Source of the DNA: Promethearchaeota archaeon
Lineage (GTDB): Archaea > Asgardarchaeota > Lokiarchaeia > Sigyniarchaeales > SOKP01
Direction: 5' to 3'
Assembly (NCBI GenBank): GCA_019058365.1
Contig: JAHPZE010000003.1
Coordinates: 128,001-192,000 of the forward strand
Length of the DNA: 64,000 bases
In this document: piece by piece, positions 3,694 through 61,293 of the stretch
How the letters are laid out: every line of letters starts with the position of its first letter
Numbering within the stretch: position 1 is the stretch's first letter
Translations under genes and position numbers: made by a program
The notes under the pieces: model-generated
Told to the model about the DNA's origin: nothing
Databases searched by the model: none
What the model saw: only the letters and a program-made list of their open reading frames with translations

Positions 3694-4227
3694 TTAGCCA
3701 ATATTATATCTATTTAGAATCATTCTTGTTATTGTATTATACATCTCCTCCACATTTTCTCCCGGTTTTAAAGAAATCTTTATCGATGAGGATATATTAT
3801 AATCTTCTTTAAATTTCACTATTTGCTCTTCGAATACGTCTCGATTCTCCTCTAAATCCAATTTAATTCCTACTAATAGATTTGGAGTTCCCTCTGTTTT
3901 ACGTTCTTTTATCAATTTACTCCATTCAGTTAATTTATTTAGAGTTTCAGTATTAGTAATATCATAAATTAATAATACTCCATTAGCACCCCCAATAGCT
4001 AATTCAAAAACTTTTTTAAATTGATCTTCCAAACTCCATCCCCATACCATTAGTCTTATAAATTTTCCTTCAATCTCTACATCTTTAGTATAAAAATTAA
4101 TACCTATTGTCGATTTAGTATCATCATCAATTAAAGATCTAGTAAATTTACTTGTTACTAATTTTTCTACTTTATTATCAGCAAACATAAAAACTTTAAA
4201 TATAAGATCAGGTTTCTCAAAATCCAT
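3694..4227 (-). CDS. Degenerate Rab-like GTPase (P-loop lost)
   Basis: STIGINFYTKDVEIEGKFIRL, LLIYDIT, LVGIKLDL and SLKPGENVEE are Rab-like; G1 and G3 are degenerate. Confidence 0.8.
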   Translation of the reverse strand: MDFEKPDLIFKVFMFADNKVEKLVTSKFTRSLIDDDTKSTIGINFYTKDVEIEGKFIRLMVWGWSLEDQFKKVFELAIGGANGVLLIYDITNTETLNKLTEWSKLIKERKTEGTPNLLVGIKLDLEENRDVFEEQIVKFKEDYNISSSIKISLKPGENVEEMYNTITRMILNRYNIG

Positions 4228-4919
4228 TTTCTTTTTTCCTCTAATAATATATTCTTATATGTTCAATTTCCAATATCGTTGTAAAAGAATCATTAGATAT
4301 TTGTTCTTATTTTGTTTTTAAAGAAGTATATTCTTTGATGATAATATAAATTTAGGTGTTTAATTGTATATATCAGAATTTCAATTGTTAATCGAATTTT
4401 AAAAGGAGAGATGGTTCTGAAGCGATATGAAATGAGTAAAAGAACCGAGCACCCTCTGAAAACGAGCGGTCGGAAGCAGCAGAAATGGTTTCGTAAAATT
4501 AAACTATATCCAAGGACTACCCTCTAATACGTTCGCTACGATCCCAACGATATTCTGAAAACCTTAATATAGTATCGCAAGAGGGACAAGACCACATCTT
4601 TACACTATGACAATCACTCACTTGAATGACCTCTCATTTAAAATTATACCTTTAAAATTATAAATTTCTCTCAGTAGGTGTAAGGGTATTAATCTTGAAA
4701 AAATCTTGAAGATGACCCTCTTTATTACAATATGGACACTTTCCCATAACAAATACTAAGAACCTCTAATATATATAGTTTACAACGTTCAAGAAAAGTG
4801 AAGAAATTTATATGATAAGTAAAAAAGAACTTTAACTATAAAACCGTGTAAAGAATTAAATATTTTAATTATTAAATTACATTAGATTATCCTCAGATTT
4901 TATTATTATGGTGCCCTAC

Positions 4920-5231
4920 CTATACTTTTTTAGGAAATGTCCTCAATCTTAGAATAGTTTCATCCCCATTAGCCCAATTCTTCAGATTAGCCAATCTTTC
5001 ACCATGATCACCATGTTCAGGATGATCAAATGCTTGTTGAAGCTCCGTACAAGGTAAATCTGGGCAAAAACCACAATGAAGATATCCTTTATCATAACAG
5101 CACTTTGCTACACCGCATTCTCCATAGAACATCTTTCCTTTACATATTTGGCATCCCAAGCAGTTAGTTTTCTCTTTCCATTCGCATATCCCACAATATG
5201 CTCCACACATACCTATTTGTTCTTTATCCAT
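4920..5231 (-). CDS. Cys-rich DUF3795-like small metal-binding protein
   Basis: IGMCGAYCGIC...CLGC...CGVAKCC...HCGFCPDLPC pattern. Confidence 0.75.
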   Translation of the reverse strand: MDKEQIGMCGAYCGICEWKEKTNCLGCQICKGKMFYGECGVAKCCYDKGYLHCGFCPDLPCTELQQAFDHPEHGDHGERLANLKNWANGDETILRLRTFPKKV

Positions 5232-5587
5232 TAGTCAATAACACTTCTTTCAGTTCTTATTGGATAATATTTACTTATATAATTATAGTATAGAATTTTT
5301 CTTTTATTTTTTTACAATAATTTATAGTTTCTTTATCCAATCGTACCCCCCTTTCTAATCATTTGAATATAAGTGATATAAAATAAGCAATAGAACTGTA
5401 AAAAATTAAATTGACCGCAATTTCATAATGTGAAATGCTATAAATGATCTATTACCCACCCCAAGCAGATTGATTCTAAAACTGTTGGTCAATTTTTATG
5501 TTTTATTTAAATACCACTTATTTAATAGAGAAAAAGCTAAATAGTATAGTTAATAAAATAATATATCAATAAAAGTATTAAAAAAGC

Positions 5588-5788
5588 GCCTCCGTAGCTC
5601 AGCTAGAAAAACTACCGCTTTTCGGTGTGCTTGGCAAAGTAGAGCACCCGGCTTAGGTATTTGGCATTATTAAATACCTCCGGAAGTTAACCGGGCGGTC
5701 GCATGTTCGATCCATTCTAAGCAAGATTTCCTTGCTGCGGGAAATATTTGCGGGATATGTTCCGCAATTCCTACAGCCGGGGGCGCCA
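5588..5788 (+). tRNA. tRNA-Asn(GTT) with three introns and encoded CCA
   Basis: Acceptor GCCTCCG/CGGGGGC, G73, CCA; D-stem GCTC/GAGC; anticodon arm CCCGG-CT|GTT-AA-CCGGG; T arm GCATG-TTCGATC-CAT|GC. Inserts at about 5607-5638, 5654-5685 and 5716-5775. Confidence 0.85.
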
Positions 5789-5815
5789 TTTATTTCTTTT
5801 ATGAATTTTTTTTCT

Positions 5816-6248
5816 TTAATGGATGCTTTTTTTTATTTGAAGTTTATTCCGCCAATAATTTATTGTAGTTTGAGATGTATTGGTTAATCGCGCTATCTTT
5901 TTGTCAGATAACCCCCATTCATAATAAACATATTCAAGCCAAGCTTTATGTTTGTAGAGTGGATTGCTTCGGGAGGATTCTTTTGTGGGATTTAGTAGGT
6001 CCCCTGTTGGGAGATTCCAATTTTGAGAAATTTCATTCCAATTAGATGATTTAATTTCTTCTCTAATTCGTTCTTTATCATGTGTAAGTTCATAGGATTT
6101 TGGCTTCCATCCAATCTCAATTTTTTCGGTTTTGATGAATGGATATTGCTTAACAATATTCGCGGAGAATTTAAAATTTTTAATATTTTTCTATGTTATT
6201 TTATAATACTGCTTTATTTGATCCCAATATTCTGACTCAGCAAGATAG
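5816..6248 (-). pseudogene. 5'-truncated HTH protein remnant with an internal TAG
   Basis: Frame reads ...AESEYWDQIKQYYKIT*(6191-6193)KNIKNF...LYKHKAWLEYVYYEWGLSDKKIARLTNTSQTTINYWRNKLQIKKSIH*; no start codon; C-terminal HTH. Confidence 0.6.
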
Positions 6249-9200
6249 TTACAACTTATCTTTAGATATTAAATTTGGATATATTGGTTCAAATTTCGAT
6301 GTGAATACCTTTGGTTTTTTCCAACACTTTTTTTTTTCATTCCATTTAAGATTTTTCAAGGGATTATAGAATTTTAGTAAATCTTCATCTGCATAAATCG
6401 ATTTAATTAGTTCATTACCATCAACTAAATCATTTAATATCAGATAGTCTTTAACCTCTAAATATTCGAATAATAAGTCAAATAATCGTTCAAATTCACT
6501 AATTTCGCATTTAGGAAAATAAATTTTAATCATTAGCCCCGTTGGGAATCTTTTTTCTTGATCAAATCCATAAATGAAATATTCTCCCGTAATTTCAGAG
6601 ATATGTACTAAATTAAAAAAACTAAAAACTTTTACAAGTGATTTAATCATTTCTTTTTTCAAATTCGGTACAATAATGTAAACTTTATTATGAAGGTCTA
6701 AATTCTTTAAAGACAAATAGGGGAAAATTAAATTTTTTCTTAATAGACTAGTGATGTGGCTTATTGTCAACACTTTTTTTGTGATTAAATAGGATTTGAT
6801 ATCTATTGATTGTCTATTATAAATTTGAGAAAGAGATTCAAATTCAGGAGATTCAGGACCAAAATAAGAAGAAATTGATTTGTTGCCGACTTCATATTCC
6901 TTAATAAATAAATTTTCTATTTGATATTTTGGATTGAAAAGTATAGTTTGCATGTGCATTTTAAATCTGTCTTTGTCATAATTCCAACCTTCTAGGGTAA
7001 GGTTATTATCAAATTGAATAATATTATAAACTTTTTTTATAAAAAATCCACAGTATTCTCGTATTATATTTTTCGATCTTGCTAACCAGTGGATATAACT
7101 TAGTTGAGGTGAATCATAAGGCATAATATAATTTATGAAAAGAGAATTAGAATTATCTATCGAGGTGGGATAGTTAATTTTTTGAAAAGTATTAAGGAGG
7201 AGAAGTTTAAAATCGATCTCGTTCATATCTGTTGGATAAAGAAATAAATAATATTGTCCCAGTCCAAAATATTCAAAAGCAGGAATAAATCTTATAGATT
7301 TAATAAAATTTGTGAAAAAATATTCTTCCTTAGCATTTTTAAATTTCTCAATATTTATTAGATACTCTTTAAGGTTTAAATGAAAATCTAACAACCGGTT
7401 TAAATTTTTGTCATTGTAATCACAATTTTCACTCATACCACGGTCGTTAACTTTTTTCACTAAATCTAAGATGTTTTCTTCATTCGACCAAAAATTTTTT
7501 TGATTTCTATTAATCTCTTCTTCACGATATTCTAACCCACTCCTAAAAATACTTTTTACATATAGAAAATATTGTTCATAGAGATCTTTCGTATAAAAGA
7601 AGGTTTTACTATCAAAATCATATAAGTGTTTGCTAGATAATGCTTTAATCCTACCAGTCCATAAAAAAAACTTTCCATAGAGTAAATTTTCTTTAAAAAT
7701 GTTATAAAGAATTGAGAATAATTGTCTCTTTTCTTTTTTAGTCAAATAAGGAGTTGAAATCTCTACATATATTAGATTTTTATCAGAAATTATCTCTTTA
7801 CTATGATCTATAGTGATTCTAGGGAAAAATCTTTTCATTTTAATAAGAAAATTTTGAGTTTCTTGAGAATTGATTAAGATTAATTGGAGAAAGTCATTTA
7901 CATATTCTTCGATGTTAATTGTGTTAATTAAAAGCGGATTGATTATTGGGGGTTCATTCTCCAATAATTTATCTAATATACTAGTTACTTCTTGGCTGGT
8001 TATTTGATAAAGTTTGAATTTTTCATAGAATTTTTCTAATTTTTCCAATTTTATTTGGTAAATATTATCTACTACTGTTTTATCGATAAATGTCTTTTTA
8101 ATCGTACTTAGGTTGAATAATTTCAAATTATAAAAAATGTTAATTAAGTCATGGAAATTTATGTAATTCTCAACCATCATTTTAAAATCCTCTTGAGACT
8201 TAAAGTAAGCTGAAATAAGATCGCTAGAATCAAGATTTTTTAAGTGACTGCTGTTAAATATGATATTATCTTCAATTAAATGAGAATGATATTGATTATC
8301 CAAAATGTCATGAAATTCAATAAGTGTTTTAACTTGAGGGTAGCGGGTTATAATTTTTTTTATAAAATCCAAAACTTGTAAATACTCCTCTAACTTCTTT
8401 TTTATATAGAAAAATCCAAATTTTTTATTTTCATTTAGAAATTCGAGAAATTTTAACTGTAGATCTTTTGAATCATAAAATTTATTTAATTTATCTTTTA
8501 AATCTATAATTAGAGTACGTTGAGTAATAATCTCATCAACCAAATCTGATTTTAAAGTCGCTAATGTTTCAGTCCTTTTTTCAAATCCAAAACCAAAAAC
8601 AGAAATAAAGCGAATTCTATCAATTATTAAAAATTGAAGAAGAGAAAGTTCAGGATTAGAAAAATCAGAACTAAAGTCAATTTGAAATTCGATCTCAAAT
8701 TTCTTATCATAACTACGATGATTAGGGTTTATTATTTTGTATTTTTGTGAATATTCTCTTAAATAATTTAAATTGAGTAGATGATTTTCAAATGTACGAA
8801 GCAAACAATAGCTCTTAGTTATAAAATTAGAACTTTTCAATCTCTTGATAAATTTAATAAAATCATCTAAGTAAGGTCTTGGGAGGATCACATAACCACT
8901 AAGTTCAACCGAAAAACTATTAAGTGAAGTCTTAGTTGCAATAAAGAATGGAGACCCTTCAATAATACTAAATATCTTAGATTTTTTTAATATTGGATTA
9001 AATCGTAGAAATACTGCTATAACACATACATTTATTGCATTCCAATTCAATTGATAAGAAGGTGCGATAAAACTGTACTTTTTGATCCAATCCATGTTTT
9101 TGATAAATTTCCTCAAACTTAAATCAGATTCGAGCTCTTGATTCTCTTTAAATTTCTGAAAATATTTTTTATAGCTTGATAGATCCTTATAATTCTTCAC

Positions 9201-9899
9201 TCGATAAAATATTCTTATTAAACATCTAATTGTTTCAATGATCTCATCATTAGTTATCGATTTTGAAATATAGTTAGCAAATTCTTGAAGGAGGATCTCA
9301 TAGAAATCATCCATTTTATTGGTAATTAATGATTCATTTTTTAATAGATAATGAAAAAAGAATCGTTTAGGAGGGAGGAAAGTATCTTTTTCTTGTTGTA
9401 GAAAAAATTTTTCCAAACGATCAAATATAATTAATCGATTGAATCCCCCTGATAAGAGATCATATTGCTCAAGTTTTCCTCTAATCAACTTTCTCCATTC
9501 ATTCAGCGCAATAGAGTTTGAAAGATCAGTTAATATTATTTGGTTGAGAACAAGTTGAATTGATTCATATTCTTTTAAACTATCTGAAATAAAACAGTTA
9601 TATATTTCACGGAGAATAATAAAGGAGATGAACTTTAGATAATCTTTATGCATTTCTATAATTAAATTTTTATTTTGAGTATACCTTTTTACTCCAATAT
9701 TAAAAATATCTTCAGTTCTTAATTGTTTTGAAATTTTTTTTTTATTAATTATTATTTTCACATTTTTTTGAAATGGTTCCATTTCTAAGGATAATTTAGT
9801 CTCATTAAGAAGACGTTGGAATAGTGAATTCAGATCTTTCTCATTGATTTTCTCTAAAGATTTTTCTAATACTCTAAGATCTAGCTTAAATATTTTCAT
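6249..9899 (-). CDS. Giant (1216 aa) putative multi-module Lrp/AsnC-like regulator, paralog of 57225-60857
   Basis: Collinear similarity to the 1210-aa protein (SDLSLRKF, GFE[KR]R, FFYTKDL, SIRFIP, LIFPYLSLKNL, YNPLKNLKWN, KFEPIYP). Repeated HTH-linker-RAM-like segments; the family call is inference. Confidence 0.6.
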   Translation of the reverse strand: MKIFKLDLRVLEKSLEKINEKDLNSLFQRLLNETKLSLEMEPFQKNVKIIINKKKISKQLRTEDIFNIGVKRYTQNKNLIIEMHKDYLKFISFIILREIYNCFISDSLKEYESIQLVLNQIILTDLSNSIALNEWRKLIRGKLEQYDLLSGGFNRLIIFDRLEKFFLQQEKDTFLPPKRFFFHYLLKNESLITNKMDDFYEILLQEFANYISKSITNDEIIETIRCLIRIFYRVKNYKDLSSYKKYFQKFKENQELESDLSLRKFIKNMDWIKKYSFIAPSYQLNWNAINVCVIAVFLRFNPILKKSKIFSIIEGSPFFIATKTSLNSFSVELSGYVILPRPYLDDFIKFIKRLKSSNFITKSYCLLRTFENHLLNLNYLREYSQKYKIINPNHRSYDKKFEIEFQIDFSSDFSNPELSLLQFLIIDRIRFISVFGFGFEKRTETLATLKSDLVDEIITQRTLIIDLKDKLNKFYDSKDLQLKFLEFLNENKKFGFFYIKKKLEEYLQVLDFIKKIITRYPQVKTLIEFHDILDNQYHSHLIEDNIIFNSSHLKNLDSSDLISAYFKSQEDFKMMVENYINFHDLINIFYNLKLFNLSTIKKTFIDKTVVDNIYQIKLEKLEKFYEKFKLYQITSQEVTSILDKLLENEPPIINPLLINTINIEEYVNDFLQLILINSQETQNFLIKMKRFFPRITIDHSKEIISDKNLIYVEISTPYLTKKEKRQLFSILYNIFKENLLYGKFFLWTGRIKALSSKHLYDFDSKTFFYTKDLYEQYFLYVKSIFRSGLEYREEEINRNQKNFWSNEENILDLVKKVNDRGMSENCDYNDKNLNRLLDFHLNLKEYLINIEKFKNAKEEYFFTNFIKSIRFIPAFEYFGLGQYYLFLYPTDMNEIDFKLLLLNTFQKINYPTSIDNSNSLFINYIMPYDSPQLSYIHWLARSKNIIREYCGFFIKKVYNIIQFDNNLTLEGWNYDKDRFKMHMQTILFNPKYQIENLFIKEYEVGNKSISSYFGPESPEFESLSQIYNRQSIDIKSYLITKKVLTISHITSLLRKNLIFPYLSLKNLDLHNKVYIIVPNLKKEMIKSLVKVFSFFNLVHISEITGEYFIYGFDQEKRFPTGLMIKIYFPKCEISEFERLFDLLFEYLEVKDYLILNDLVDGNELIKSIYADEDLLKFYNPLKNLKWNEKKKCWKKPKVFTSKFEPIYPNLISKDKL

Positions 9900-9988
9900 T
9901 ATGCGTATATAAGATTAGTCAAATAAATTTTAAGAGATTAATATTTAATTTTTTTCATTTTAATATTTAATAATCTTTTTTCTGGGAA

Positions 9989-9996
9989 TTTATATA
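9989..9996 (+). promoter_or_regulatory. TATA box of peptide gene 1
   Basis: TTTATATA after CTGGGAA, 59 nt before the start; conserved in the duplicated copy at 12058-12065. Confidence 0.6.
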
Positions 9997-10047
9997 TTTA
10001 AATTTTAAAAAATTCTTAAGAAAATTTAGTTTTCTTGGTGTATTCAT

Positions 10048-10158
10048 TTGAAAATTAGAAATAAAAATTCAATATTATTAGCTTTATTGACCAGTATTTC
10101 AGCTTTTTTTCATATGTCCATCGGGTATGCATGGTCTGGTGGATATGGGACGCCTTAA
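10048..10158 (+). CDS. 36-aa putative secreted peptide / RiPP precursor, MKIRNKNSILLALLTSISAFFHMSIGYAWSGGYGTP
   Basis: TTG start 7 nt after a GGTG Shine-Dalgarno; basic n-region plus hydrophobic h-region; paralog at 12116-12230; directly upstream of the radical SAM gene. Confidence 0.75.
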   Translation: MKIRNKNSILLALLTSISAFFHMSIGYAWSGGYGTP

Positions 10159-10371
10159 ATATGTTTAAGCTAAAAAATGCTATAAAGCTAACATATATTT
10201 TTATTTTTTTATAGTAATTTAAGAGGAAATGCACCTTTACTTAGAGTAATTATTTCATGTTTAGTCTATTACAGATTATTTTTCAATTATTTCTTTTATA
10301 CTAGAAAAAGAATTCATTTGGTTTATAAATCTAAACTTTCATAATAATACATCCACAGATTTAGCATAAAT

Positions 10372-11952
10372 ATGAAAGCTCAAAATTTTAAAATTCTTTA
10401 TATTCATCCTGAAGAATCCAAAAATCGACCTTATTTCCTTTCAGGTATATTACGAATCTCAAATTATTTAAATTCAAGAAAACACTCACTAAATTATAAT
10501 ATTGAAGAAGAATATTTAGACTTAAGATTTGAACGATTACCTTCATTCTCATTCAAAAATATTCATAATTATAGAAAAAAACTAAAAAAATTATTATTTA
10601 AAACATACGATGATTTCAACTTTAATTTAGTAGCAATATCTTGCTATAGTTCATTTTATTACCTTAACACCTTAGAAATTGCTTTCATTATAAAATATTC
10701 AATTAATCCTGATTGTATAATAGTTGTTGGTGGACCTCACCCATCAATCATTCCAAATGATTTCAATCCTATCAATATTCCAAAATTCTTTTATGAGTTC
10801 TACCCTGATAATATAATCCCATTTAATTATATCATAAGAGAAGAAGCTGAAATTGGTTTTTTTAAATTAATTTGTAGTTTATTGAAGAATAATTCAGTGG
10901 AAAGGTCATCTTCAACGCATAAATTTAGAACCCTTACATCAGATTTAATAATAGACTTAGACAAAATTCCTGTAATAGATTTTTCTCTTTATGAAAAATA
11001 TAAAGAAAAAATTAATAAATTAGGTTTTATTAATATTGATTTCTGTAGGGGTTGTATGTTTCATTGTTCATTTTGCATAAATTCAACAGATTTTATGAAT
11101 TGTTATAAAAAAGTTAGATTAAAAAATATCAATTTATGCATAGAAGAAATAAAAGTTGTTAATGATACTAAATGGTTATCTATAAATGATATTCATATAA
11201 TGGATCCAATATTTTTTCCTAATAGAAGTTACAGAAATAAATTTTACTTAAAACTAAAACAATTTAAACACGAAACTGATGGTTTTCCAGATAAGATTCG
11301 TGTTTTTGATCGGATAGATTTATGTTCAGAAAAAGATTTAGAAAATTACAAAGATTTAAACATTATTCCAGAAATTGGTCTTGAATCAATTTCTAAAACC
11401 ACCTTAACTAATATGAATAAATTAAAAACTCTAGATGATAAAAGTATTATTAATTATACTAATAAAGTAAGAAAAATTATTGAGATTTCTAATAATTTAA
11501 AGCATGAAGTTAATTTTAATTACATATTTGGTTTTCCAGGATCATTGAAAGATGAATATAATGATTTTGATAATTTCTTCTTTAAGAATAATCAAAGAAT
11601 TCACTCATTAATGGAGAATTTTAATATAAATATAGTTTGGACCTTATATGCAGCTATACCAAGATCTAAAATCTATAATGAATGCGAATCTAAATTTGGA
11701 GCAAAAATTTTTTATAAGAATTGGTGGAGAATGCCGAAAGATAATCAAAGGGAGCTATGTAAATTAATAAAACCCAGTTCTAATTTAACTTTTGCTGAAA
11801 CAATTAATTTAGCAGAAAAATATTTTAAAAAAATATATTTTTTTCAACAAAAAAGAGGAAACAGATTTTATTCTAAGAACTATTACTCATTTTATAAAAG
11901 TCACCTTAAGCAATTAAGAGATGAATATTCAGATATTCTCTTCACTCAATAG
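10372..11952 (+). CDS. B12-binding-domain radical SAM enzyme (class B methyltransferase-like)
   Basis: N-terminal cobalamin-binding domain (LVAISC...IVVGGPHPS), CxxxCxxC motif RGCMFHCSFC, IGLES, IFGFPG. Confidence 0.9.
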   Translation: MKAQNFKILYIHPEESKNRPYFLSGILRISNYLNSRKHSLNYNIEEEYLDLRFERLPSFSFKNIHNYRKKLKKLLFKTYDDFNFNLVAISCYSSFYYLNTLEIAFIIKYSINPDCIIVVGGPHPSIIPNDFNPINIPKFFYEFYPDNIIPFNYIIREEAEIGFFKLICSLLKNNSVERSSSTHKFRTLTSDLIIDLDKIPVIDFSLYEKYKEKINKLGFINIDFCRGCMFHCSFCINSTDFMNCYKKVRLKNINLCIEEIKVVNDTKWLSINDIHIMDPIFFPNRSYRNKFYLKLKQFKHETDGFPDKIRVFDRIDLCSEKDLENYKDLNIIPEIGLESISKTTLTNMNKLKTLDDKSIINYTNKVRKIIEISNNLKHEVNFNYIFGFPGSLKDEYNDFDNFFFKNNQRIHSLMENFNINIVWTLYAAIPRSKIYNECESKFGAKIFYKNWWRMPKDNQRELCKLIKPSSNLTFAETINLAEKYFKKIYFFQQKRGNRFYSKNYYSFYKSHLKQLRDEYSDILFTQ

Positions 11953-53615: not shown

Positions 53616-54842
53616 ATGTTTAAATTAAAAAGAAACGGATCAAAATCATATTTTAATATAAATTATGTTTCATTTGTATTTATATATTTAACCTATTCAT
53701 CTATATTTGTTTTTCTTAATAAATTTCTTCCAATTCTCTTTTTTGATGTATTAGATATTAATAGAATTATTCTTGCATTAATGCAGTTTCTTGCTTATTC
53801 CATATTATTATTACGTCCTGTTTTAGCTACAATAACAGATAACTTCAGAATTAAGGGTTATCAACGGAAATATTATATTATTCTTTCTGGATATTTATTA
53901 GCGTTATTCTACATTCTTATTGGGTTTAACTTCAATAATATTTTAATGTTTGGAGTCCTTTTATGTTTGATTTATATTTCAAGTATGATGCTAGATGTTT
54001 GTTCAAAATCCTTAGTTATTGATATTTCACCAACTAACGTAATAAAAAAAAGAAACCTCTTTTTTGTGTCTTTAGGCGAAGCTTTAGGAAATTTTTTTCC
54101 TTTCTTTTTATTCTTTCTTCTTATCAATGATGTTCATTCAATAAATTCTTGGGAAACTATGATTTACTGTAGCTTTCTTTTATTAATACCTTTATTAAGT
54201 ATTTTGCCATTTATTATTGAGAGAAGGCAATGGAATCCTCAAGTCATCGAAAAGCCCGAAAGGATTGAAATTTCTGAAGAAATTAGTCTAAATTCTAATC
54301 ATAAACCTAAATTAACATTCATTTTACTCTGCATTTTTATCTTTTTTGCATTTAGCGATGTAATTTTCGCATATCCTTTTTTTCCTTATCTAATACACAA
54401 ATTTGGACTCAATAACTTTAATATATTTAATCTCTTTTTAAGCTTTTATTTTCTCATAAGTATAGTGAGTAGTGCAATTGGTGGATTTCTTGTTAAAAAA
54501 GCAAAACCTAAAATTATTATATTCATTCTAATCCCAATAATCGGAATTATTTATTTGATGTATATAATTGTCCCTTTTACATATTTTACTATATTATATT
54601 TTTTAGGATGCTCTTTAGGGACAATTGCTAACTTTAACATTACAGTATATATTATGAAGTTTAAACAAGGAGATAAATCAGTCTATTTTCACCTTATAGC
54701 ATCCTTCAGACATCTAGCATGCTTCATTTTTATTCCATTAGGAACTCTACTTTCCAGTTTTATAATTACTGAATATCTTATTATCATTGGTGCTATATTG
54801 TTGAATATCTCAATCCTTCCTTTAATTTTTGTAAAACTCTAA
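53616..54842 (+). CDS. MFS transporter
   Basis: About 12 TM helices; LRPVLATITDN...RKYYI and MLDVCSKSLVID motifs, as in BT1/AmpG-like MFS proteins; convergent with YcaO. Confidence 0.82.
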   Translation: MFKLKRNGSKSYFNINYVSFVFIYLTYSSIFVFLNKFLPILFFDVLDINRIILALMQFLAYSILLLRPVLATITDNFRIKGYQRKYYIILSGYLLALFYILIGFNFNNILMFGVLLCLIYISSMMLDVCSKSLVIDISPTNVIKKRNLFFVSLGEALGNFFPFFLFFLLINDVHSINSWETMIYCSFLLLIPLLSILPFIIERRQWNPQVIEKPERIEISEEISLNSNHKPKLTFILLCIFIFFAFSDVIFAYPFFPYLIHKFGLNNFNIFNLFLSFYFLISIVSSAIGGFLVKKAKPKIIIFILIPIIGIIYLMYIIVPFTYFTILYFLGCSLGTIANFNITVYIMKFKQGDKSVYFHLIASFRHLACFIFIPLGTLLSSFIITEYLIIIGAILLNISILPLIFVKL

Positions 54843-54879
54843 AAAAATTAAAAGAAATATTTTTATGATAATTATAATT

Positions 54880-56649
54880 TCAACAAAAGAAATCTTGGAT
54901 CTTATGATCATAGTGATTTTTAATAACCTTGAAAAGATCCGGATATTTAGATGTAATTTTTTTCTCGATAAATTCAAGTAAACCATATCTACATGTTCGC
55001 ACATGCCTGCAATTATTACATTCTTGATGACAATTTGGAATCAATTTTTCTAGCCTTGTTAAGAGTTTTTTTGAAAAATCTTTAAATGGTTCATTTTTAA
55101 ACGTAATTGGGATCTCATTGGATTTCCTTAATTTCCAAAATTTTTTAAAGAGATCAGAATTGCCGTAAGCTAAACAAAGCAAAGAAAAAAACTCCCATGT
55201 AGATATTCGTCTTAGAGCAAGTGTATCAATTCCTAGAAATGTTGAAAGGTTATAATTTTTTATCACTACATAAATCAACGATTCAGATCTAGATAATATT
55301 TCTAAGTCAATTGATTGGATATCTCTTATATTTGTTATGAGTATTTTCTTTAGCTTAAATACTTGATCTGGCATGTATAAGAGATAATCAAGTATGCAAC
55401 ATTCGAGTTCTGGAACAAATAATCTTATTGTAGGAAAACCAAGCCAATTATAGTCTCTCATATAAATATACCAACCATTTTTTCTACAAAATTCTGTAAG
55501 ATTTTTTAGTTCAACAAGAAAATTTTTATCACTATAATCCCATTTCTTAAAACTTCCAAAATTTACAATTAGAAATTCTAATTTTTTTGAAGGATACATT
55601 TGCTGGACTTCAAATCTATATTTGAAAAAACCTTCTAATGGGAAATAGTTGTTTATTTCGGGAAAAACTTTATACAATTTTGAAATACTTAATAAATAGC
55701 GTTTAGTATATCTTAATCTAATTTTATGAAATGGAAAGACTTGTAATTTTTCGGTAAAACATCGCTCAATTGCGAAATTAATGGAAGTAGCTGCGGATAT
55801 ATGAAATTCCAGTTTATCGATCTGTTTATGGTGAAAAACTACACCGACTACAGGGATTCCTTTGTTTAAGCTCAAATCTTTTACAATAATATCAATATTC
55901 TCTTTATTAAATTTCTGTATAATTTCTTTATTATTATTTGAAATATATTCTGATGGTATTGTAGGGCATTTTATATTATCAGAAATTACTTTTATTATAG
56001 TATAAGTTTCGAAAATCTCACATAAAGCTTGCACAAAAGCTTCTTCGTATGAATTTCCCGAGGCACATCCTTTAGTTGAGGATAAGAAAATAGTATCAAG
56101 AAAAACTTCTTCATTTGTATAAACATTCTTAAATGGGAGATACATCTTATTGTATCCATCCCAATTAGGTAAGTATGGATTGTTTTTTCGTGTTTTTTTA
56201 AAAATTCTCTCATTTAATTCTTTATCTTTCTCGGATATCTCTGTATTAAATATAGGACAAATCTTTGGTTTTAATAGGTTTCGTGAAAACCACCACCCAA
56301 TTTGAATTCTTTCTATTAATTCAGCATATCCACTAGCAACACTAGCCTCTAAAGTCGTACCTTTCCCAAAGGAATTATATAGAATAAAATCATTACTAAC
56401 CTCTAAAGCATGACTGAGATTTGTACTAGTGATCCATATATCTTCGATTGAACTTGTATAAGAAGAATGCTCAACAAATTTATTTCTTTTTAAGAAAAAT
56501 TTTAATGATTTTGTTATATTCTGAATGGTTTCTTGAAATGAAACGGCTTTATAACCATTCACTTTTTCAGAATTTCTAAAACCATTAAACTTTGGATAAA
56601 AAATATGTGTTCTATCCTGTTTAAAATAGGATTTATCAATTATTGTCAT
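54880..56649 (-). CDS. ycaO: Stand-alone YcaO-family protein with a Cys-rich C-terminal extension
   Basis: GKGTT...ASVASGYAELIER, KGCASGNSYEEAFVQALCEIFE, KDLSL..GIPVVGV, AIERCFTEKLQ, PTIRLFVP. Confidence 0.9.
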   Translation of the reverse strand: MTIIDKSYFKQDRTHIFYPKFNGFRNSEKVNGYKAVSFQETIQNITKSLKFFLKRNKFVEHSSYTSSIEDIWITSTNLSHALEVSNDFILYNSFGKGTTLEASVASGYAELIERIQIGWWFSRNLLKPKICPIFNTEISEKDKELNERIFKKTRKNNPYLPNWDGYNKMYLPFKNVYTNEEVFLDTIFLSSTKGCASGNSYEEAFVQALCEIFETYTIIKVISDNIKCPTIPSEYISNNNKEIIQKFNKENIDIIVKDLSLNKGIPVVGVVFHHKQIDKLEFHISAATSINFAIERCFTEKLQVFPFHKIRLRYTKRYLLSISKLYKVFPEINNYFPLEGFFKYRFEVQQMYPSKKLEFLIVNFGSFKKWDYSDKNFLVELKNLTEFCRKNGWYIYMRDYNWLGFPTIRLFVPELECCILDYLLYMPDQVFKLKKILITNIRDIQSIDLEILSRSESLIYVVIKNYNLSTFLGIDTLALRRISTWEFFSLLCLAYGNSDLFKKFWKLRKSNEIPITFKNEPFKDFSKKLLTRLEKLIPNCHQECNNCRHVRTCRYGLLEFIEKKITSKYPDLFKVIKNHYDHKIQDFFC

Positions 56650-56814
56650 ATTCTTATTACATGTTTATTTATTTCTATAAAATTTCTATAAGTCAAACAA
56701 ATTTCTAATTTCAATTTAAACTCCTAAAAACCTAAAAAATTTGAAAAATGATTTCAGTTTTTCAAAATAGTAGTTAAAAAATAAATATAAAACAGTTTTA
56801 GGACACGAGAAGTT

Positions 56815-56841
56815 AGAAAAGAAGAAATAAAAAGAAGAAAT
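56815..56841 (-). terminator. Oligo-T-rich tract after the peptide gene
   Basis: Minus strand TTTCTTCTTTTTATTTCTTCTTTTCT about 30 nt after the stop codon. Confidence 0.4.
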
Positions 56842-56869
56842 ATAGTAATTTAATTTGATAGTGATTTAC

Positions 56870-57010
56870 TTAATATGGAAATCCAGTTCTGCCATGAGGG
56901 ACTTGAAAGCGTGGGCATCCCTTACCGCCATGAGGGACTTGAAAGCGTGGGCATCCCTTACCGCCATGAGGAATCGTAAATAAATCAAATATCATCTCAT
57001 TGCTATTCAT
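56870..57010 (-). CDS. 46-aa multi-core RiPP precursor candidate, MNSNEMIFDL-FTIPHGGKGCPR-FQVPHGGKGCPR-FQVPHGRTGFPY
   Basis: Hand translation; same strand as YcaO and 220 nt upstream of it; three 12-aa cassettes; TTTAAATA TATA-like box near 57080-57087. Confidence 0.8.
   Translation of the reverse strand: MNSNEMIFDLFTIPHGGKGCPRFQVPHGGKGCPRFQVPHGRTGFPY
56891..56971. repeat. Perfect 36-nt tandem repeat, 2.25 copies
   Basis: GCCATGAGGGACTTGAAAGCGTGGGCATCCCTTACC at 56891-56926 and 56927-56962, plus GCCATGAGG at 56963-56971; GC-rich against an AT-rich background. Confidence 0.97.
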
Positions 57011-57224
57011 CTTTATTAAACCCTAATTATTAAATAATGAATTAATTAGTCATTATTCAATAACTTATGTTATCTCATATATTTAAAGTTCTAATATTTT
57101 CCTACACCTAGAGACAGGTAATAAAAAATAAAAGAAAGTAAAGTAAATCCTTAAATTGAAATAGAATTAAGTTAAATTATTTAAAAGAAAATCAACTTTT
57201 TTTTCTTAAATATAACGTTCTCTT

Positions 57225-60200
57225 TTGCAGATAATGGATTTCATAAATGAATTTGAACATCTAAAAAGGCTTTCATTAGGTAAAGAGCTCGAAGATATTG
57301 ATATAATTTTTCAAAAGTATATAGATTCTATATATAACTATTTAAAGTTAGAACCTGTTCATAAAAATGTGAGAATACACCTCTTGGAAAAAGAAAATTT
57401 ATTAAAAGAAGAAAAGGAAATTAATCCCTTTGATATTGGGGTTGCTCGATTCATCCAAGACAAAATCTTACATTTAGAGATCTCTCAAAAATATACTGAA
57501 TTTTTACCGTATATCTTATTAAGAGAAGCATATTATATTTTTCTTCCGAAAAGAAGTGTATCTGTTGAGATAGCAGTAAATTCATTTATAGAAAAGGATT
57601 TACAAGATTTAGATGAGATTGGCAAGTGGCAATCAATGATTCGAGAATGCTTTATCCATGATGATTCTGTGAGTAAAATTATGACGGCTTTTGAAAAATT
57701 ACATCTGGAAGTAGCAGACTTATGTAAAATATTTTTTAATATGGTTAGGAATAATATTTCCCTAATTGATAAAGACATGGATGATTTAGTTACTCGACTT
57801 CAAGAAGAAATAATGTCTAAACTCTCAAAAATTTTCTATAACGATGAAATGGTTGAGACTTTGAGAGTCCTCATCGAAATATTTTATAGAGTTAAACAAT
57901 ACACCGCATTATTGAATTATCAGGAACATTTTAAAATCTATAAAGAAAAAAATATAATAAAGAGTGATTTGAGTTTAAGGAAATTTACATCAAATATGAA
58001 ATTAATAAGCAATAATTCTCTACTTAGCCCTAGTTATCTAACCCGGTGGAATACAATCGATGTATTTGTTTGTTTCTGTTATATGAGATTCCATCCTAAA
58101 ATAACTGTTTCTCAGATAAATAGGATTTTAAAAACCTTTCCTTTTTTTCTAGAACCCAGAACTGCTTACTCTTCTGGCTTTTGTCCAGATATTTTTGGAT
58201 TTTTCATTTTACCAAGAGTCTACTTTTTAGATTTTATAGGCATATTAAACAGAATGAAAAATAATAATTATTTGACTAAATTATCTGTTTATAGGCTTAA
58301 CTATTTCTTTAATTTTGCTAACTTAAATTTTCTTAGGAGTTTTCATAAATATGAATCTCTTATTAATCCCTTTCACAATCAATATGATATTAAATTTGAG
58401 ATAAATTATTTCTTAAACTATGGTGAAAATTTTCATCAGAAAGAATTAGATCTGCTTGATTTTTTGATTTTAGATAGAATTAGGTTCTTTTCTACAAATT
58501 CATTTGGATTTGAAAGAAGAGCTAATACTTTAACAGACCTAAAAAAAAGTATTATTGAAGAAGTTACATATCAAAGAAATCTTATTATCGATATTAAAGA
58601 ACTTGCCAAAAAAATTTCTGAAAAACCAAAAATTAAATCCAATTTTCTTAAATTTTTAGATACCAACCAAACTTATGGACTATTTTATATTAAAAATGTC
58701 TTAGATTCACTACTAACAATATTGATCTTTATTGAAATATTTTTCATAAAAAATCCGAATATTAAAAACACATTTAATTTTAAAGAATGGATTAAGAAGC
58801 ATGGATTATCTAATCTAATTGAGAGTAATCTATTTTTAAAAAAAAAATTTATAAAAACACTGATTTTTAATGACTTCGTACCGCTTTATTTTAATTCTAA
58901 AGAAAAATTCAAGGAGAAATTAAACGAATACAAGATATACAATCAATTCATAGATATATGTTTCAATCTTAAAACATTCAATTTAAAAGTCATAAAACAG
59001 ATTGTTGAAAATCCGGAAACTTTGAAAAAAGTTTATGAAAAAAAAGAGTTAAAACTAAAAGAGATATATGAAATAGTGAAACTAACAGATATTACAAGTA
59101 AAGAAGTTGAAGAAAGAATAGCAGGATTCCTTAAAAATAAACCACCCATAATAGAACCGTGGTTACTTAACACTCTTGGATATTTATATACGAATATAGA
59201 AGATTTAGTTTTTATAATTAAAAATGATGAAGAAACCTTGAAAAAACTTAATTTAATTAAAAAGTTTTTTCCCTTTTTTATAATCTTTACTTCAACAGAT
59301 TTGATCTCTAATGAGGATATAATTTTTACTGAAGTCAGTTTCCCCAACTTTCATTACCGTGATGCATATCAATTTTATTCCATATTATATAATACATTTA
59401 AGGAAAATCTACTAATCGCTAAGAGATATTTATCTAGTGGATTTACTCCTGTATTTTCTTTAAAATCCTTTTATAATTTCGAGACACGTCAATTCTTTTA
59501 TACTAAAGATTTATTTAAGCAATTCTTTCATTACATACAAAAAACTTTAGGAGAAAATTTTGAGTTTATTCCAATTAAAGATAATAAAATCTTATCAAAA
59601 TTACTCTCAAAAGAAAATAATATGTTTAATTTGGTAAAAACAATAAAAAACAGACAATCAAGAGATAAAATTGATTATAAAATTAAAAACTTAAAAAAAT
59701 TAATAGAATTTAATCTCAATCTTGATAAATCATTAAAAGATTTAGAAAAATATAAAGAAATAAAGCAAGAAACCTTTTTTAAAAAATATGTAAACTCTAT
59801 CCGATTCATTCCCTCTTTTCAACATTTTGGATTTGATCAGTTTTTTTTGTATATTTTCCCGATAGATATGAGTAAAATCGATTTAAAACTTCTATTTCTC
59901 AATAATTTTCAACAAATAAAATGTTCCTCATCAATTGATGCTCCCAATCCATTATTAATTAAATATATCATGCCTAATAACACTCCCAATGATAAATATC
60001 TCCATTGGTTGGTGAAATCAATGAAAGTAATTCAAGAATACTCTTTATTCTCTGTTAAAAAAATTTATAGTTTATTACATTTTGATTACAATCTTGCTGA
60101 AAATGGTTGGGAATATGATGCTGATAAATTTAAAAGCCACTTGGAAAATATTCTCTTTAAGTCGGGTTATGAGATTGAAATTCCTAAAGTGAGAGAATTT

Positions 60201-60857
60201 AATATTTCAAAACAATTAACCTCTTCTTATTATGATCCAAAATCTGAGGAATATGAAACTCTCACCAAAATCTATGGTCGGAAATCCTTGGATATGAAAT
60301 CTTATTTAGGAACAAGAAATTATAAAGTTGTAAACTCAATTAAAAACTTATTAAACAAAAAATTAATATTTCCATATTTATCCCTAAAGAATTTAGGATT
60401 TCAAGATAAACTTCTTATAATTCTTCCCAATATTAAATCCAAATCTAAAGACATTTTATTACAAATATTCAGTTACTTTAATTATGGTTTTATTTATGAA
60501 ATTGAAGGAGAATTTTACATTTATGGATTTGATAAGGAAGTAAAATTTGAGGAAGGATTAATGATAAAACTGTATCTTCCAAAATCCAAGTTTAGCATGT
60601 TTCATAAATTTCTTGAAGTCTTTAATTTATTATTTGAATATTTAGAAATCCCCCATTATTTATTTTTATATGATTTAGTTAACAGTAAGGAGTTAATTAA
60701 ATCGGTTTATGGAAATATTCAGTTCCTAAAACAATATAATCCTTTAAAGAATCTAAAGTGGAATAAAAAGGACAAAATTTGGTTGAATCATAAGGTATTT
60801 ACTCAGAAATTTGAACCTATATATCCAGATTTACTTTATAATAAAGAAGATAATTAG
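57225..60857 (+). CDS. Giant (1210 aa) putative multi-module Lrp/AsnC-like regulator, paralog of 6249-9899
   Basis: End-to-end similarity with the 1216-aa protein; N-terminal LLREAY motif; repeated HTH-RAM-like segments (inference). Confidence 0.6.
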   Translation: MQIMDFINEFEHLKRLSLGKELEDIDIIFQKYIDSIYNYLKLEPVHKNVRIHLLEKENLLKEEKEINPFDIGVARFIQDKILHLEISQKYTEFLPYILLREAYYIFLPKRSVSVEIAVNSFIEKDLQDLDEIGKWQSMIRECFIHDDSVSKIMTAFEKLHLEVADLCKIFFNMVRNNISLIDKDMDDLVTRLQEEIMSKLSKIFYNDEMVETLRVLIEIFYRVKQYTALLNYQEHFKIYKEKNIIKSDLSLRKFTSNMKLISNNSLLSPSYLTRWNTIDVFVCFCYMRFHPKITVSQINRILKTFPFFLEPRTAYSSGFCPDIFGFFILPRVYFLDFIGILNRMKNNNYLTKLSVYRLNYFFNFANLNFLRSFHKYESLINPFHNQYDIKFEINYFLNYGENFHQKELDLLDFLILDRIRFFSTNSFGFERRANTLTDLKKSIIEEVTYQRNLIIDIKELAKKISEKPKIKSNFLKFLDTNQTYGLFYIKNVLDSLLTILIFIEIFFIKNPNIKNTFNFKEWIKKHGLSNLIESNLFLKKKFIKTLIFNDFVPLYFNSKEKFKEKLNEYKIYNQFIDICFNLKTFNLKVIKQIVENPETLKKVYEKKELKLKEIYEIVKLTDITSKEVEERIAGFLKNKPPIIEPWLLNTLGYLYTNIEDLVFIIKNDEETLKKLNLIKKFFPFFIIFTSTDLISNEDIIFTEVSFPNFHYRDAYQFYSILYNTFKENLLIAKRYLSSGFTPVFSLKSFYNFETRQFFYTKDLFKQFFHYIQKTLGENFEFIPIKDNKILSKLLSKENNMFNLVKTIKNRQSRDKIDYKIKNLKKLIEFNLNLDKSLKDLEKYKEIKQETFFKKYVNSIRFIPSFQHFGFDQFFLYIFPIDMSKIDLKLLFLNNFQQIKCSSSIDAPNPLLIKYIMPNNTPNDKYLHWLVKSMKVIQEYSLFSVKKIYSLLHFDYNLAENGWEYDADKFKSHLENILFKSGYEIEIPKVREFNISKQLTSSYYDPKSEEYETLTKIYGRKSLDMKSYLGTRNYKVVNSIKNLLNKKLIFPYLSLKNLGFQDKLLIILPNIKSKSKDILLQIFSYFNYGFIYEIEGEFYIYGFDKEVKFEEGLMIKLYLPKSKFSMFHKFLEVFNLLFEYLEIPHYLFLYDLVNSKELIKSVYGNIQFLKQYNPLKNLKWNKKDKIWLNHKVFTQKFEPIYPDLLYNKEDN

Positions 60858-61215: not shown

Positions 61216-61290
61216 GGACCTATAGCCTAGCCTGGATAGGGCGTCGGACTTCTAATCCGAAAGTCGCAGGTTCGAATCCTGCTAGGTCCG
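61216..61290 (+). tRNA. tRNA-Arg(TCT), intronless
   Basis: GGACCTA/TAGGTCC acceptor; TCGGA-CTTCTAA-TCCGA arm; GGTTCGAATC. Confidence 0.97.
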
Positions 61291-61293
61291 CTC

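Follow-up and report, generated by a model that had tools for sequence, protein, structure and literature searches.

The closest known systems include bacterial ones in which a tiny peptide gene lies next to its sensor. In RopB/SIP and other leaderless communication peptides, and in the Rgg/SHP systems of streptococci (RRNPP family), a tiny peptide gene, of 8-10 aa in the leaderless class, is transcribed divergently from a cytoplasmic regulator; both leaderless and leader-bearing forms exist, and tailoring-enzyme genes (radical SAM RiPPs) lie next to some pairs (PMC13361665). In the agr system of Staphylococcus (AgrBDC), the gene of a post-translationally modified peptide varies together with the sensing part of its receptor in one sharply bounded block, which spans agrD and the 5' part of agrC (PMC3673130), and Bacillus ComQXP is a pherotype system of the same sort. 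YcaO enzymes, on the other hand, act on peptides or on folded proteins. Bottromycin has partner-less YcaOs, one of which makes a thiazoline from Cys in an 8-residue core, whereas the streptamidine YcaO works with an E1-like partner (10.1101/2020.05.04.076059). Cyanobactins have several short cores per precursor (PatE/TruE), ending in Pro or Cys, which are processed by a YcaO enzyme (PatD/TruD/LynD). The YcaO of E. coli (PDB 4Q84-4Q86) is a uL16 thioamide synthase that acts without TfuA (PMC13063428), and methanogen YcaO/TfuA thioamidates MCR. In the papers found, no YcaO-made RiPP has been characterised from archaea: they are listed as predicted only (PMC12144867), and archaeal thioamidation is reported only on MCR (PMC8120280).

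We analysed a stretch of 64,000 nucleotides (hereafter, the window) from a Loki-type Asgard archaeon. An initial annotation had described in it a minimal archaeal YcaO RiPP cluster made of a three-cassette precursor, a YcaO, and a convergent MFS transporter. The observation itself was confirmed, but the cluster had been drawn too small, because it left out a divergent gene of 1210 aa that belongs to the system. The components are as follows:

56870..57010 (-): 46-aa precursor gene, with a 13-residue leader, three Pro-to-Pro octapeptide cassettes, 4-residue linkers starting with Arg, and a terminal Tyr
56948..56971 (-): core 1 (residues 14-21)
56912..56935 (-): core 2 (residues 26-33), identical to core 1 at the DNA level
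56876..56899 (-): core 3 (residues 38-45), a variant without Cys and with a Thr
57080..57087 (-): TATA-like site 77 nt upstream of the precursor start, kept inside the variable block in a same-genus genome (weak evidence)
54880..56649 (-): 589-aa stand-alone YcaO with E. coli YcaO-like full-length architecture and a C-terminal 4-Cys motif
53616..54842 (+): 408-aa MFS transporter, convergent, inferred exporter
57225..60857 (+): 1210-aa protein, head-to-head with the precursor, with a gluzincin-like head (residues about 7-190) plus Lrp/AsnC-like modules; inferred peptide sensor and regulator
56880..59985 (no strand): variable block that covers the precursor, the shared intergenic region and the first ~920 aa of the 1210-aa protein, and leaves out YcaO and MFS

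The 46-aa ORF reads exactly as first described. It holds an exact 36-bp repeat (2.2 copies, 56891-56971), and the genome has only 6 such long near-perfect tandem repeats. Its GC content is 45%, against 19% in both flanks. The repeat is not an assembly artefact: in the likely source run, the repeat unitig has a depth of 143, against 72-87 beside it. Since the repeat opens several frames on both strands, the ORF could be a chance reading of repetitive DNA, but we regard this as very unlikely. Only this frame keeps its start, stop and core in a same-genus genome (G005), the same core is encoded by one-copy genes elsewhere, and position and strand match the pattern of the family (see below). Between the window and G005, there are four synonymous changes in kept codons, and the leader, PHG, Gly, Pro and stop are kept while the linkers change. 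The G005 allele is a called protein on 5 contigs. Sediment and salt-marsh samples hold the locus. A promoter and terminator scan, bacterial in design, was at chance level.

The comparison with G005 also corrects the repeated unit. G005 keeps three PHGGDGCP cores and the terminal Tyr, but has Val-Arg-Thr/Ala where the window has Phe-Gln-Val. The conserved unit is therefore P-H-G-x-x-G-x-P, an octapeptide bracketed by Pro (PHGG[K/D]GCP) after a 13-residue leader, and not F-x-[IV]-PHG after a 10-residue leader as initially proposed; we rejected F-x-[IV] as a recognition motif. In G005, and in the 7 other assemblies of that allele with a complete ORF, every cassette has Cys, so that the third cassette of the window is a variant in which one base turns Cys to Phe. 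Assemblies show 2, 3 or 4 cassettes, some of which may be assembly effects.

These results bear on the earlier interpretation, which is only partly supported. A real multi-cassette precursor beside a partner-less YcaO from a RiPP-associated clade, with an MFS that plausibly exports the peptide, is supported. The idea of a minimal YcaO cluster is not, since the peptide gene and the MFS are the core of a module built round the 1210-aa gene, and this module occurs without YcaO at the same chromosomal site in other genomes. The inference of amidine or macrocycle formation from the Cys-less third cassette is not supported either, given the Cys in every cassette of the G005 allele; moreover, streptamidine-type amidines need a free N-terminal amine (10.1101/2020.05.04.076059), whereas this core begins with Pro. 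Finally, the variation in cassette number does not support a fixed 2:1 ratio of two products.

The YcaO matches PF02624 well above the curated cut-off (132.9 bits against 25.7, E 2e-38) and is the only one in the genome. Its structural model (pLDDT 81.6) gave 41 Foldseek hits at E<=0.001, all of them YcaO. The closest solved structure over the whole length is E. coli YcaO (TM 0.61, E 3e-21, 19% identity), whose ATP/Mg residues K61, S71, E75, E78, N187, E191, E199, E202, R286 and E290 are kept. In the window's enzyme, all acidic ligands and K96, S106, N199 and R296 are present, but the second ExxER reads ExxET: Thr215 replaces Arg203 of E. coli YcaO, an Arg kept in 95 of 98 homologues, and Lys193, where most have Asn or Thr, may compensate. 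The enzyme does not belong to the uL16-thioamidating group, as it scores 92 bits against a cut-off of 700 (NF040716), is basic (pI 9.13) instead of acidic (4.4 for E. coli YcaO), has the extra 4-Cys motif, and is patchy, not core. Membership of the MCR-type enzymes is also rejected (TIGR03266, 60 against 365): it is 200 residues longer, groups instead with bacterial ~600-aa YcaOs and those of Thermoplasmatales, and no TfuA (PF07812) was found in the genome, which is 100% complete by markers. The same absence sets it apart from thioamitides. It is not of the SagD type (TIGR03604, 66 against 219), and the adjacent ORFs include no ThiF/E1 partner, fused or separate, no dehydrogenase and no recognisable protease. 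Unlike bottromycin, streptamidine and klebsazolicin loci, this one has no RRE-radical SAMs, amidohydrolase or other adjacent hydrolase, and its precursor shows no sequence likeness to theirs. Unlike cyanobactins, it has no PatA/PatG-type proteases, no fused E1/RRE domain and no conserved recognition sequences between the cores, the linkers being the variable part; TruD and LynD match only the catalytic part (E 0.01-0.03).

The best-supported partner of the peptide is the 1210-aa protein. A Pro-ending, Gly-containing small ORF lies divergent within 600 nt of 38 of 109 homologues of this protein, against a mean of 4.0 (maximum 8) in shuffled sequences, 5 on the other strand and 4% for other genes of this genome, although kin are not independent. 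One-copy genes of the form Met-PHGG-x-x-x-P-stop occur in four genomes (G026, G028, G128 and G132; 88-98% complete) in which no YcaO was found. Such genomes keep the MFS, so YcaO is optional in the module. A class-wide DNA pattern for PHG-x4-P-stop matched about as often as its control, so we used only individual in-frame hits. The giant proteins of the one-copy PHGG genes form a clade that leaves out the window's protein, which rejects a grouping of the two for the whole protein, the head and the tail; the shared PHGG core may thus be convergent or shuffled.

The two alleles differ in a sharply bounded manner. DNA identity between the window and G005 is 73% inside the variable block and 96.5% outside, with a boundary at the precursor's stop. 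The head of the 1210-aa protein is 56% identical between the alleles and the tail 91%. Peptide and N-terminal three quarters of the protein diverge as one block, as in agr, though this rests on one allele pair. Such joint divergence is expected of ligand and receptor, although toxin and immunity would give it too. Unlike in agr and comQXP, there is no histidine kinase, AgrB or ComQ, the inferred receptor is predicted to be soluble, and YcaO and MFS (96-99% identical) lie outside the block. In particular, YcaO is 97% identical while the core changes Lys to Asp, whereas part of agrB varies with its peptide.

Searches of Pfam and PDB sequences with the family of the 1210-aa protein were blank, and Foldseek with the whole 1200-aa model gave nothing at E<=0.001. 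In the model (pLDDT 72, with a poor region at 860-990), the head matches M1 aminopeptidases and thermolysin (Z 8-9, rmsd 3.5-4.6, about 166 aligned residues) and the rest matches NirDL (Z 14.6) and Lrp proteins (Z 7.1-7.7); Z-scores of 7-9 are middling. The head lacks the HExxH zinc motif of gluzincins: Arg100-Glu101 is invariant in 32 rows of the alignment, with no His at either ligand position. The listed structural matches are gluzincin and Lrp/ferredoxin-like, in a comparison that barely covered the helical middle (440-640), and give no evidence of the HTH-TPR fold of RRNPP sensors. The locus shares with those systems a divergent small peptide gene, but the partner is a 1210-aa gluzincin-like plus Lrp-like protein, a dedicated MFS stands in place of PptAB/Opp, the precursor is multi-copy, and the tailoring enzyme would act on the signal itself.

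The MFS protein has weak MFS_1 and BT1 hits and is a homologue of the MFS genes beside leaderless mini-peptide genes in loci without YcaO. An MFS gene lies within about 1.5 kb of 19 of 32 leaderless peptides and of 0 of 18 signal-peptide-type ones (classes assigned by eye), which points to two export routes for one kind of cargo. This argues against an alternative in which the 46-aa product, or a regulatory leader peptide, is never cut or never leaves the cell and binds or tunes the giant protein directly, possibly as a multivalent ligand, while the MFS carries something else. The lack of a linked protease and of a signal peptide, and the varying number of cassettes, fit this alternative, but we consider it improbable.

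We favour a model, with a probability of roughly 0.45, in which the 46-aa ORF is a polyprotein form of the Pro-ending mini-peptide encoded head-to-head with members of a Loki-family of 1200-aa proteins. Sequence and comparison establish that the gene is real, that its unit is a Pro-bracketed octapeptide, that peptide, shared promoter region and N-terminal part of the giant protein diverge together, that the MFS travels with peptides lacking a signal peptide, and that YcaO is present at some such loci and absent from most. Everything that concerns function, including expression, modification, cleavage, export and binding, is inferred, in the absence of expression or biochemical data. In this view, the precursor is made in the cytoplasm and YcaO uses ATP to activate a backbone carbonyl in each cassette, most likely closing Cys to a thiazoline (-18 Da). 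If YcaO acts at all, we would weigh thiazoline at about 50%, TfuA-independent thioamide at about 30%, and amidine, macrocycle or ATP-dependent cleavage at about 20%. An unlinked protease would cut in the Arg linkers, exopeptidases would trim back to the two prolines, and the MFS would move the octapeptides across the membrane. The peptide would then bind the zinc-less peptidase-like head of the 1210-aa protein and switch its Lrp-like modules, giving an allele-specific cell-to-cell signal in the manner of agr or RopB/SIP but with unrelated parts. The repeats would raise the yield per translation, and the leader would give a handle for processing.

The role of YcaO is the weakest part of this model. 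In its favour, the gene is co-oriented just behind the precursor, although a T-tract follows the precursor stop and a TATA-like site precedes YcaO, so they may be separate transcripts. Three other lineages (designated L008, L202 and L198/L102) have this YcaO beside a peptide gene of the family, which makes four lineages in three chromosomal settings. These YcaOs lie on one side of a branch (FastTree 95; IQ-TREE 47/74), but their monophyly is not shown. The dN/dS of 0.24, like that of the neighbours, argues against decay. Bacterial relatives sit in RiPP-type neighbourhoods, with radical SAM/SPASM in 59 of 149 loci, a peptidase/ABC exporter cluster in 40, B12 radical SAM in 29, and Nif11-type leaders; one locus (L026) has a Nif11-like precursor of Gly-Gly-Cys repeats.

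It remains possible, if less likely, that the module releases the peptide unmodified and that YcaO is a passenger or a regulated output gene, acting on another substrate (a folded protein, as E. coli YcaO does on uL16 and methanogen YcaO on MCR) or decaying. PHGG octapeptides are encoded in genomes where no YcaO was found, YcaO lies outside the variable block and has lost a near-invariant Arg, its best structural match is a protein-modifying enzyme, and about 7 other Loki lineages of this clade, the majority of its Loki members, have no peptide gene nearby. The ~100-aa acidic protein beside YcaO in the three other peptide-linked lineages was not found in this genome, and a search with it gave no usable hit. 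Against this reading, the leader and repeats are seen only in the YcaO-bearing locus, the pI is unlike that of the acidic uL16-modifying group (PMC13063428), and a B12-binding radical SAM takes the same position at a second module in the window. A complex prediction of YcaO, ATP, Mg and precursor gave no verdict and counts neither way. YcaO cannot be called a recent insertion, since L198, from another genus, has peptide plus YcaO without the giant gene at the same TFIIB-adjacent site, so that loss elsewhere is as possible as gain here.

A further reading, which widens the initial one, is that YcaO makes a RiPP end product (antimicrobial or metal-binding, given His and Cys) exported by the MFS, the 1210-aa protein being only a transcription regulator or resistance factor. 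The row of precursor, YcaO and transporter, the multi-core layout, the RiPP-type bacterial relatives, and the radical SAM and ThiF-like genes at other module loci are in line with it. However, most module loci have no tailoring enzyme at all, only an 8-10-codon gene, which fits leaderless communication peptides better (PMC13361665), and together with the joint divergence of peptide and N-terminal region this makes the reading unlikely.

The boldest reading that our data allow, which we hold as doubtful, is that Loki-type Asgard archaea have an allele-specific peptide signalling system built from unrelated parts (a zinc-less peptidase head fused to Lrp modules as sensor, MFS or Sec for export), and that this locus makes a YcaO-matured, polyprotein-encoded pheromone. 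In the literature searched, which lacked most subscription journals, neither a YcaO-modified signal nor a gene-encoded peptide signal of Asgard archaea is described, and we found no paper on peptide signalling in these archaea. The locus makes both questions testable with small reagents, as it offers two natural alleles of an 8-residue peptide, two matching alleles of the candidate sensor, one nearly identical enzyme, and YcaO-less loci that encode the same kind of core as a built-in control. If the enzyme acts, it is a partner-less YcaO of an uncharacterised ~600-aa clade that is common in anaerobic bacteria. If the peptide is a signal, close prokaryotic relatives of eukaryotes use polyprotein-encoded peptide signals.

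The second module of the window has a different peptide and a different neighbouring enzyme:

6249..9899 (-): second copy of the giant protein (1216 aa, about 42% identical)
10048..10158 (+): its divergent 36-aa peptide gene, with a signal-peptide-like leader and a Gly-rich tail ending in Pro
10372..11952 (+): 526-aa B12-binding radical SAM protein behind that peptide gene, 35% identical to the radical SAM beside YcaO in L008

The three parts of the locus described in the initial annotation are present as reported, and this observation holds:
56870-57010 (-), 46-aa ORF
54880-56649 (-), 589-aa YcaO
53616-54842 (+), 408-aa MFS, convergent

The ORF is built on an exact 36-bp repeat, which is one of only six long near-perfect tandem repeats in the 4.7-Mb genome. 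The contig depth in the likely source run fits two copies of the shared unit. The closest homologues of the YcaO are named Promethearchaeota or Lokiarchaeota, from which we infer that the genome is that of a Loki-type Asgard archaeon. The genome has a single YcaO and we found no TfuA in it.

To assess whether the small ORF is a gene, we compared it with the same-genus genome G005, whose YcaO is 97% identical. G005 has the same start, stop, spacing, and terminal Tyr, with three PHGGDGCP cores and different linkers. The ORF is thus a gene, and we regard a chance reading of the DNA as very unlikely. Assemblies carrying the G005 allele show 2, 3, or 4 cassettes, although part of this variation may be due to the collapse or expansion of repeats in the assembly. 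The conserved unit is thus a Pro-to-Pro octapeptide. The interpretation in the initial annotation is only partly supported. It derived a possible chemistry from the Cys-less third cassette of the window, but every cassette of the G005 allele has Cys, so that this cassette cannot define the chemistry. The system is also larger than the minimal cluster that was initially proposed.

Head-to-head with the precursor lies a gene encoding a 1210-aa protein without a Pfam match. The family of this giant protein is found in 118 of 134 genomes of this family and in none of the 26 other genomes of the class that were searched. We searched the regions upstream of its homologues and found small divergent ORFs ending in Pro in 38 of 109 regions, against a shuffle mean of 4.0, 5 on the other strand, and 4% for other genes of this genome. 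These ORFs have two forms: leaderless genes of 8-14 codons, and genes of 36-45 codons with a Lys-rich, hydrophobic leader and a short Gly-rich tail. Some leaderless genes encode nearly the same core as the window, namely MPHGGEVCP in genome G026 and MPHGGEIVP in genome G028, with similar in-frame matches in genomes G128 and G132. No YcaO was found in these four genomes. One-copy mini-genes at five loci (L280, L282, L273, L256, and L270) share a purine-rich site resembling a ribosome-binding site before the start, and a short inverted repeat plus T-tract right after the stop, i.e., they look like self-contained transcripts. At six other loci (L234, L235, L277, L281, L298, and L301), two or three tandem, separately encoded peptide genes lie upstream of one giant gene, a gene-level amplification that parallels the cassette-level amplification in the window.

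The MFS of the window is homologous to those found beside leaderless genes (27-29% identity, E 1e-16 to 1e-39). Within about 1.5 kb, an MFS is found near 19 of 32 leaderless genes but near none of 18 leader-bearing ones, with the caveat that the classes were assigned by eye and that kin are not independent; locus L008 has one farther off. Genomes G004, G107, and G099 have the giant gene, a one-copy peptide gene, and a convergent MFS at the same TFIIB-adjacent site without YcaO. In the window, a tRNA-Arg(TCT) (61216-61291) lies 360 nt downstream of the giant gene, and tRNA-like sequence also flanks several homologues, so the module may favour tRNA-adjacent sites. The alternative that the peptide stays within the cell or is never cut seems improbable to us.

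The window holds a second complete module (6249-11952), with a leader-type peptide and a B12 radical SAM gene in the position that YcaO occupies in the first:
6249-9899 (-), 1216-aa paralogue of the giant protein
10048-10158 (+), divergent 36-aa leader-type peptide gene with a TTG start; this exact sequence was not found in the protein collection
10372-11952 (+), B12 radical SAM gene, from a family with many Promethearchaeota members

The fullest version of the module that we observed is at L008 (11468-11863), where two near-identical 39-aa leader-type peptide genes lie between a 1212-aa homologue and a converging pair of YcaO and B12 radical SAM genes, with an MFS beyond. At locus L208, a 224-aa ORF with an E1/ThiF-like motif (seen by eye) lies about 670-1350 nt upstream of the giant gene and near a co-oriented mini-peptide gene. 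It is possibly a third kind of tailoring enzyme for the module.

The peptide tracks the giant protein. Against G005, the DNA identity is 96.5% on both sides but 73% from 56880 to 59985. This block begins at the stop of the precursor and ends about 920 residues into the giant protein, whose head is 56% identical and whose tail is 91% identical. YcaO and MFS lie outside the block. This is the pattern of the agr hypervariable region (PMC3673130), seen here in one allele pair. The structural model of the giant protein (pLDDT 72) has a predicted N-terminal domain like M1 aminopeptidases and thermolysin (Z 8-9) and repeated Lrp/AsnC-like units (NirDL Z 14.6; Lrp proteins Z 7-7.7). The position of the zinc motif has invariant Arg-Glu and no His. 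We infer that the head is a noncatalytic peptide-binding domain. The rival reading, in which the locus makes a RiPP end product and the giant protein is a plain regulator, appears unlikely. One result does not fit neatly: the giant proteins associated with the one-copy PHGG genes form a clade without the protein of the window, so the shared core may be convergent or the result of shuffling.

The model of the YcaO matches E. coli YcaO over the full length (TM 0.61). Because the latter is now shown to thioamidate uL16 without TfuA (PMC13063428), the lack of TfuA does not exclude a thioamide. The YcaO of the window is basic, not acidic like that group, and it scores below the cut-offs of the uL16, MCR, and SagD families. 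It belongs to a clade of ~600-aa proteins with a C-terminal four-Cys motif, whose bacterial members sit among radical SAM/SPASM, B12 radical SAM, peptidase ABC exporter, and Nif11-leader genes. In Loki genomes its distribution is patchy: 12 of 161 have any YcaO, and 2 of 54 in this genus. Four lineages have it beside a peptide gene of the family (window/G005, and the loci L008, L202, and L198/L102). These lie on one side of a branch, with weak support in the careful tree (47/74). In L202 (genome G069), a transposase-like region (4026-5900) separates the peptide gene from YcaO. All their peptide tails hold Cys, Ser, or Thr, which about half of the YcaO-less peptides lack, but this was assessed by eye and is weak evidence.

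Several features argue against a role of YcaO in the module. It is outside the variable block, and Thr215 replaces an Arg kept in 95 of 98 homologues. A ~100-aa acidic, probably helical protein, which is a possible YcaO partner, lies beside YcaO in the three other peptide-linked lineages (L008 6385-6699, L202 1602-1925, and L198 9042-9341; L008 and L202 match with E 2e-4, L198 only by alignment), but it was not found in this genome. In addition, about seven Loki lineages have the enzyme with no peptide gene nearby. On the other hand, the YcaO of the window is under purifying selection like its neighbours (dN/dS 0.24). We consider it somewhat more likely than not that it modifies this precursor. 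The same module with YcaO as a mere passenger is doubtful but remains the main competing explanation.

In the most likely scenario, the precursor would be modified at Cys by YcaO, cut in the Arg linkers by an unlinked protease, trimmed to the prolines, exported by the MFS, and sensed by the head of the 1210-aa protein, which would regulate transcription through its Lrp-like units. Our analysis shows the gene, the genomic links, and the joint divergence, whereas the modification, processing, export, binding, and regulation are inferred. The chain as a whole is therefore tentative (probability of about 0.45). In this view, the system would work like the streptococcal RopB/SIP or Rgg/SHP pairs, in which leaderless 8-10-aa peptides are divergent from the regulator (PMC13361665), and like agr in its variable cassette. 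Yet it does not fulfil the criteria of agr, and it has no demonstrated RRNPP fold. By the defining genes tested, it is not a cyanobactin, TOMM, thioamitide, or bottromycin cluster. Literature searches found no description of such a system; its putative logic is of a known type, but it is built from unrelated parts.

The survey of YcaO loci also revealed other arrangements. Bacillota and Mycoplasmatota relatives of the YcaO (loci L035, L052, L062, L080, L084, and L155; one clade, although L155 was not in the tree) are followed just downstream by low-complexity repeat ORFs, Met/Cys/Ser-rich on one strand and His-rich on the other. Whichever of these frames is coding, they are possible precursors of an undescribed RiPP class. 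In genome G049, three 845-877-aa YcaO proteins with long N-terminal extensions (loci L017 4852-7485 and L019 1847-8872), two of them in a tandem duplication, are next to SNF2-type helicase and NYN-domain genes. In genome G042 (locus L018 8344-11129), a YcaO is co-oriented directly behind a RimK-like ATP-grasp gene. Finally, in a Negativicutes genome (locus L026 5308-5637, +), a Nif11-like leader followed by five Gly-Gln-Gly-Gly-Cys-type repeats lies directly upstream of a partner-less YcaO.
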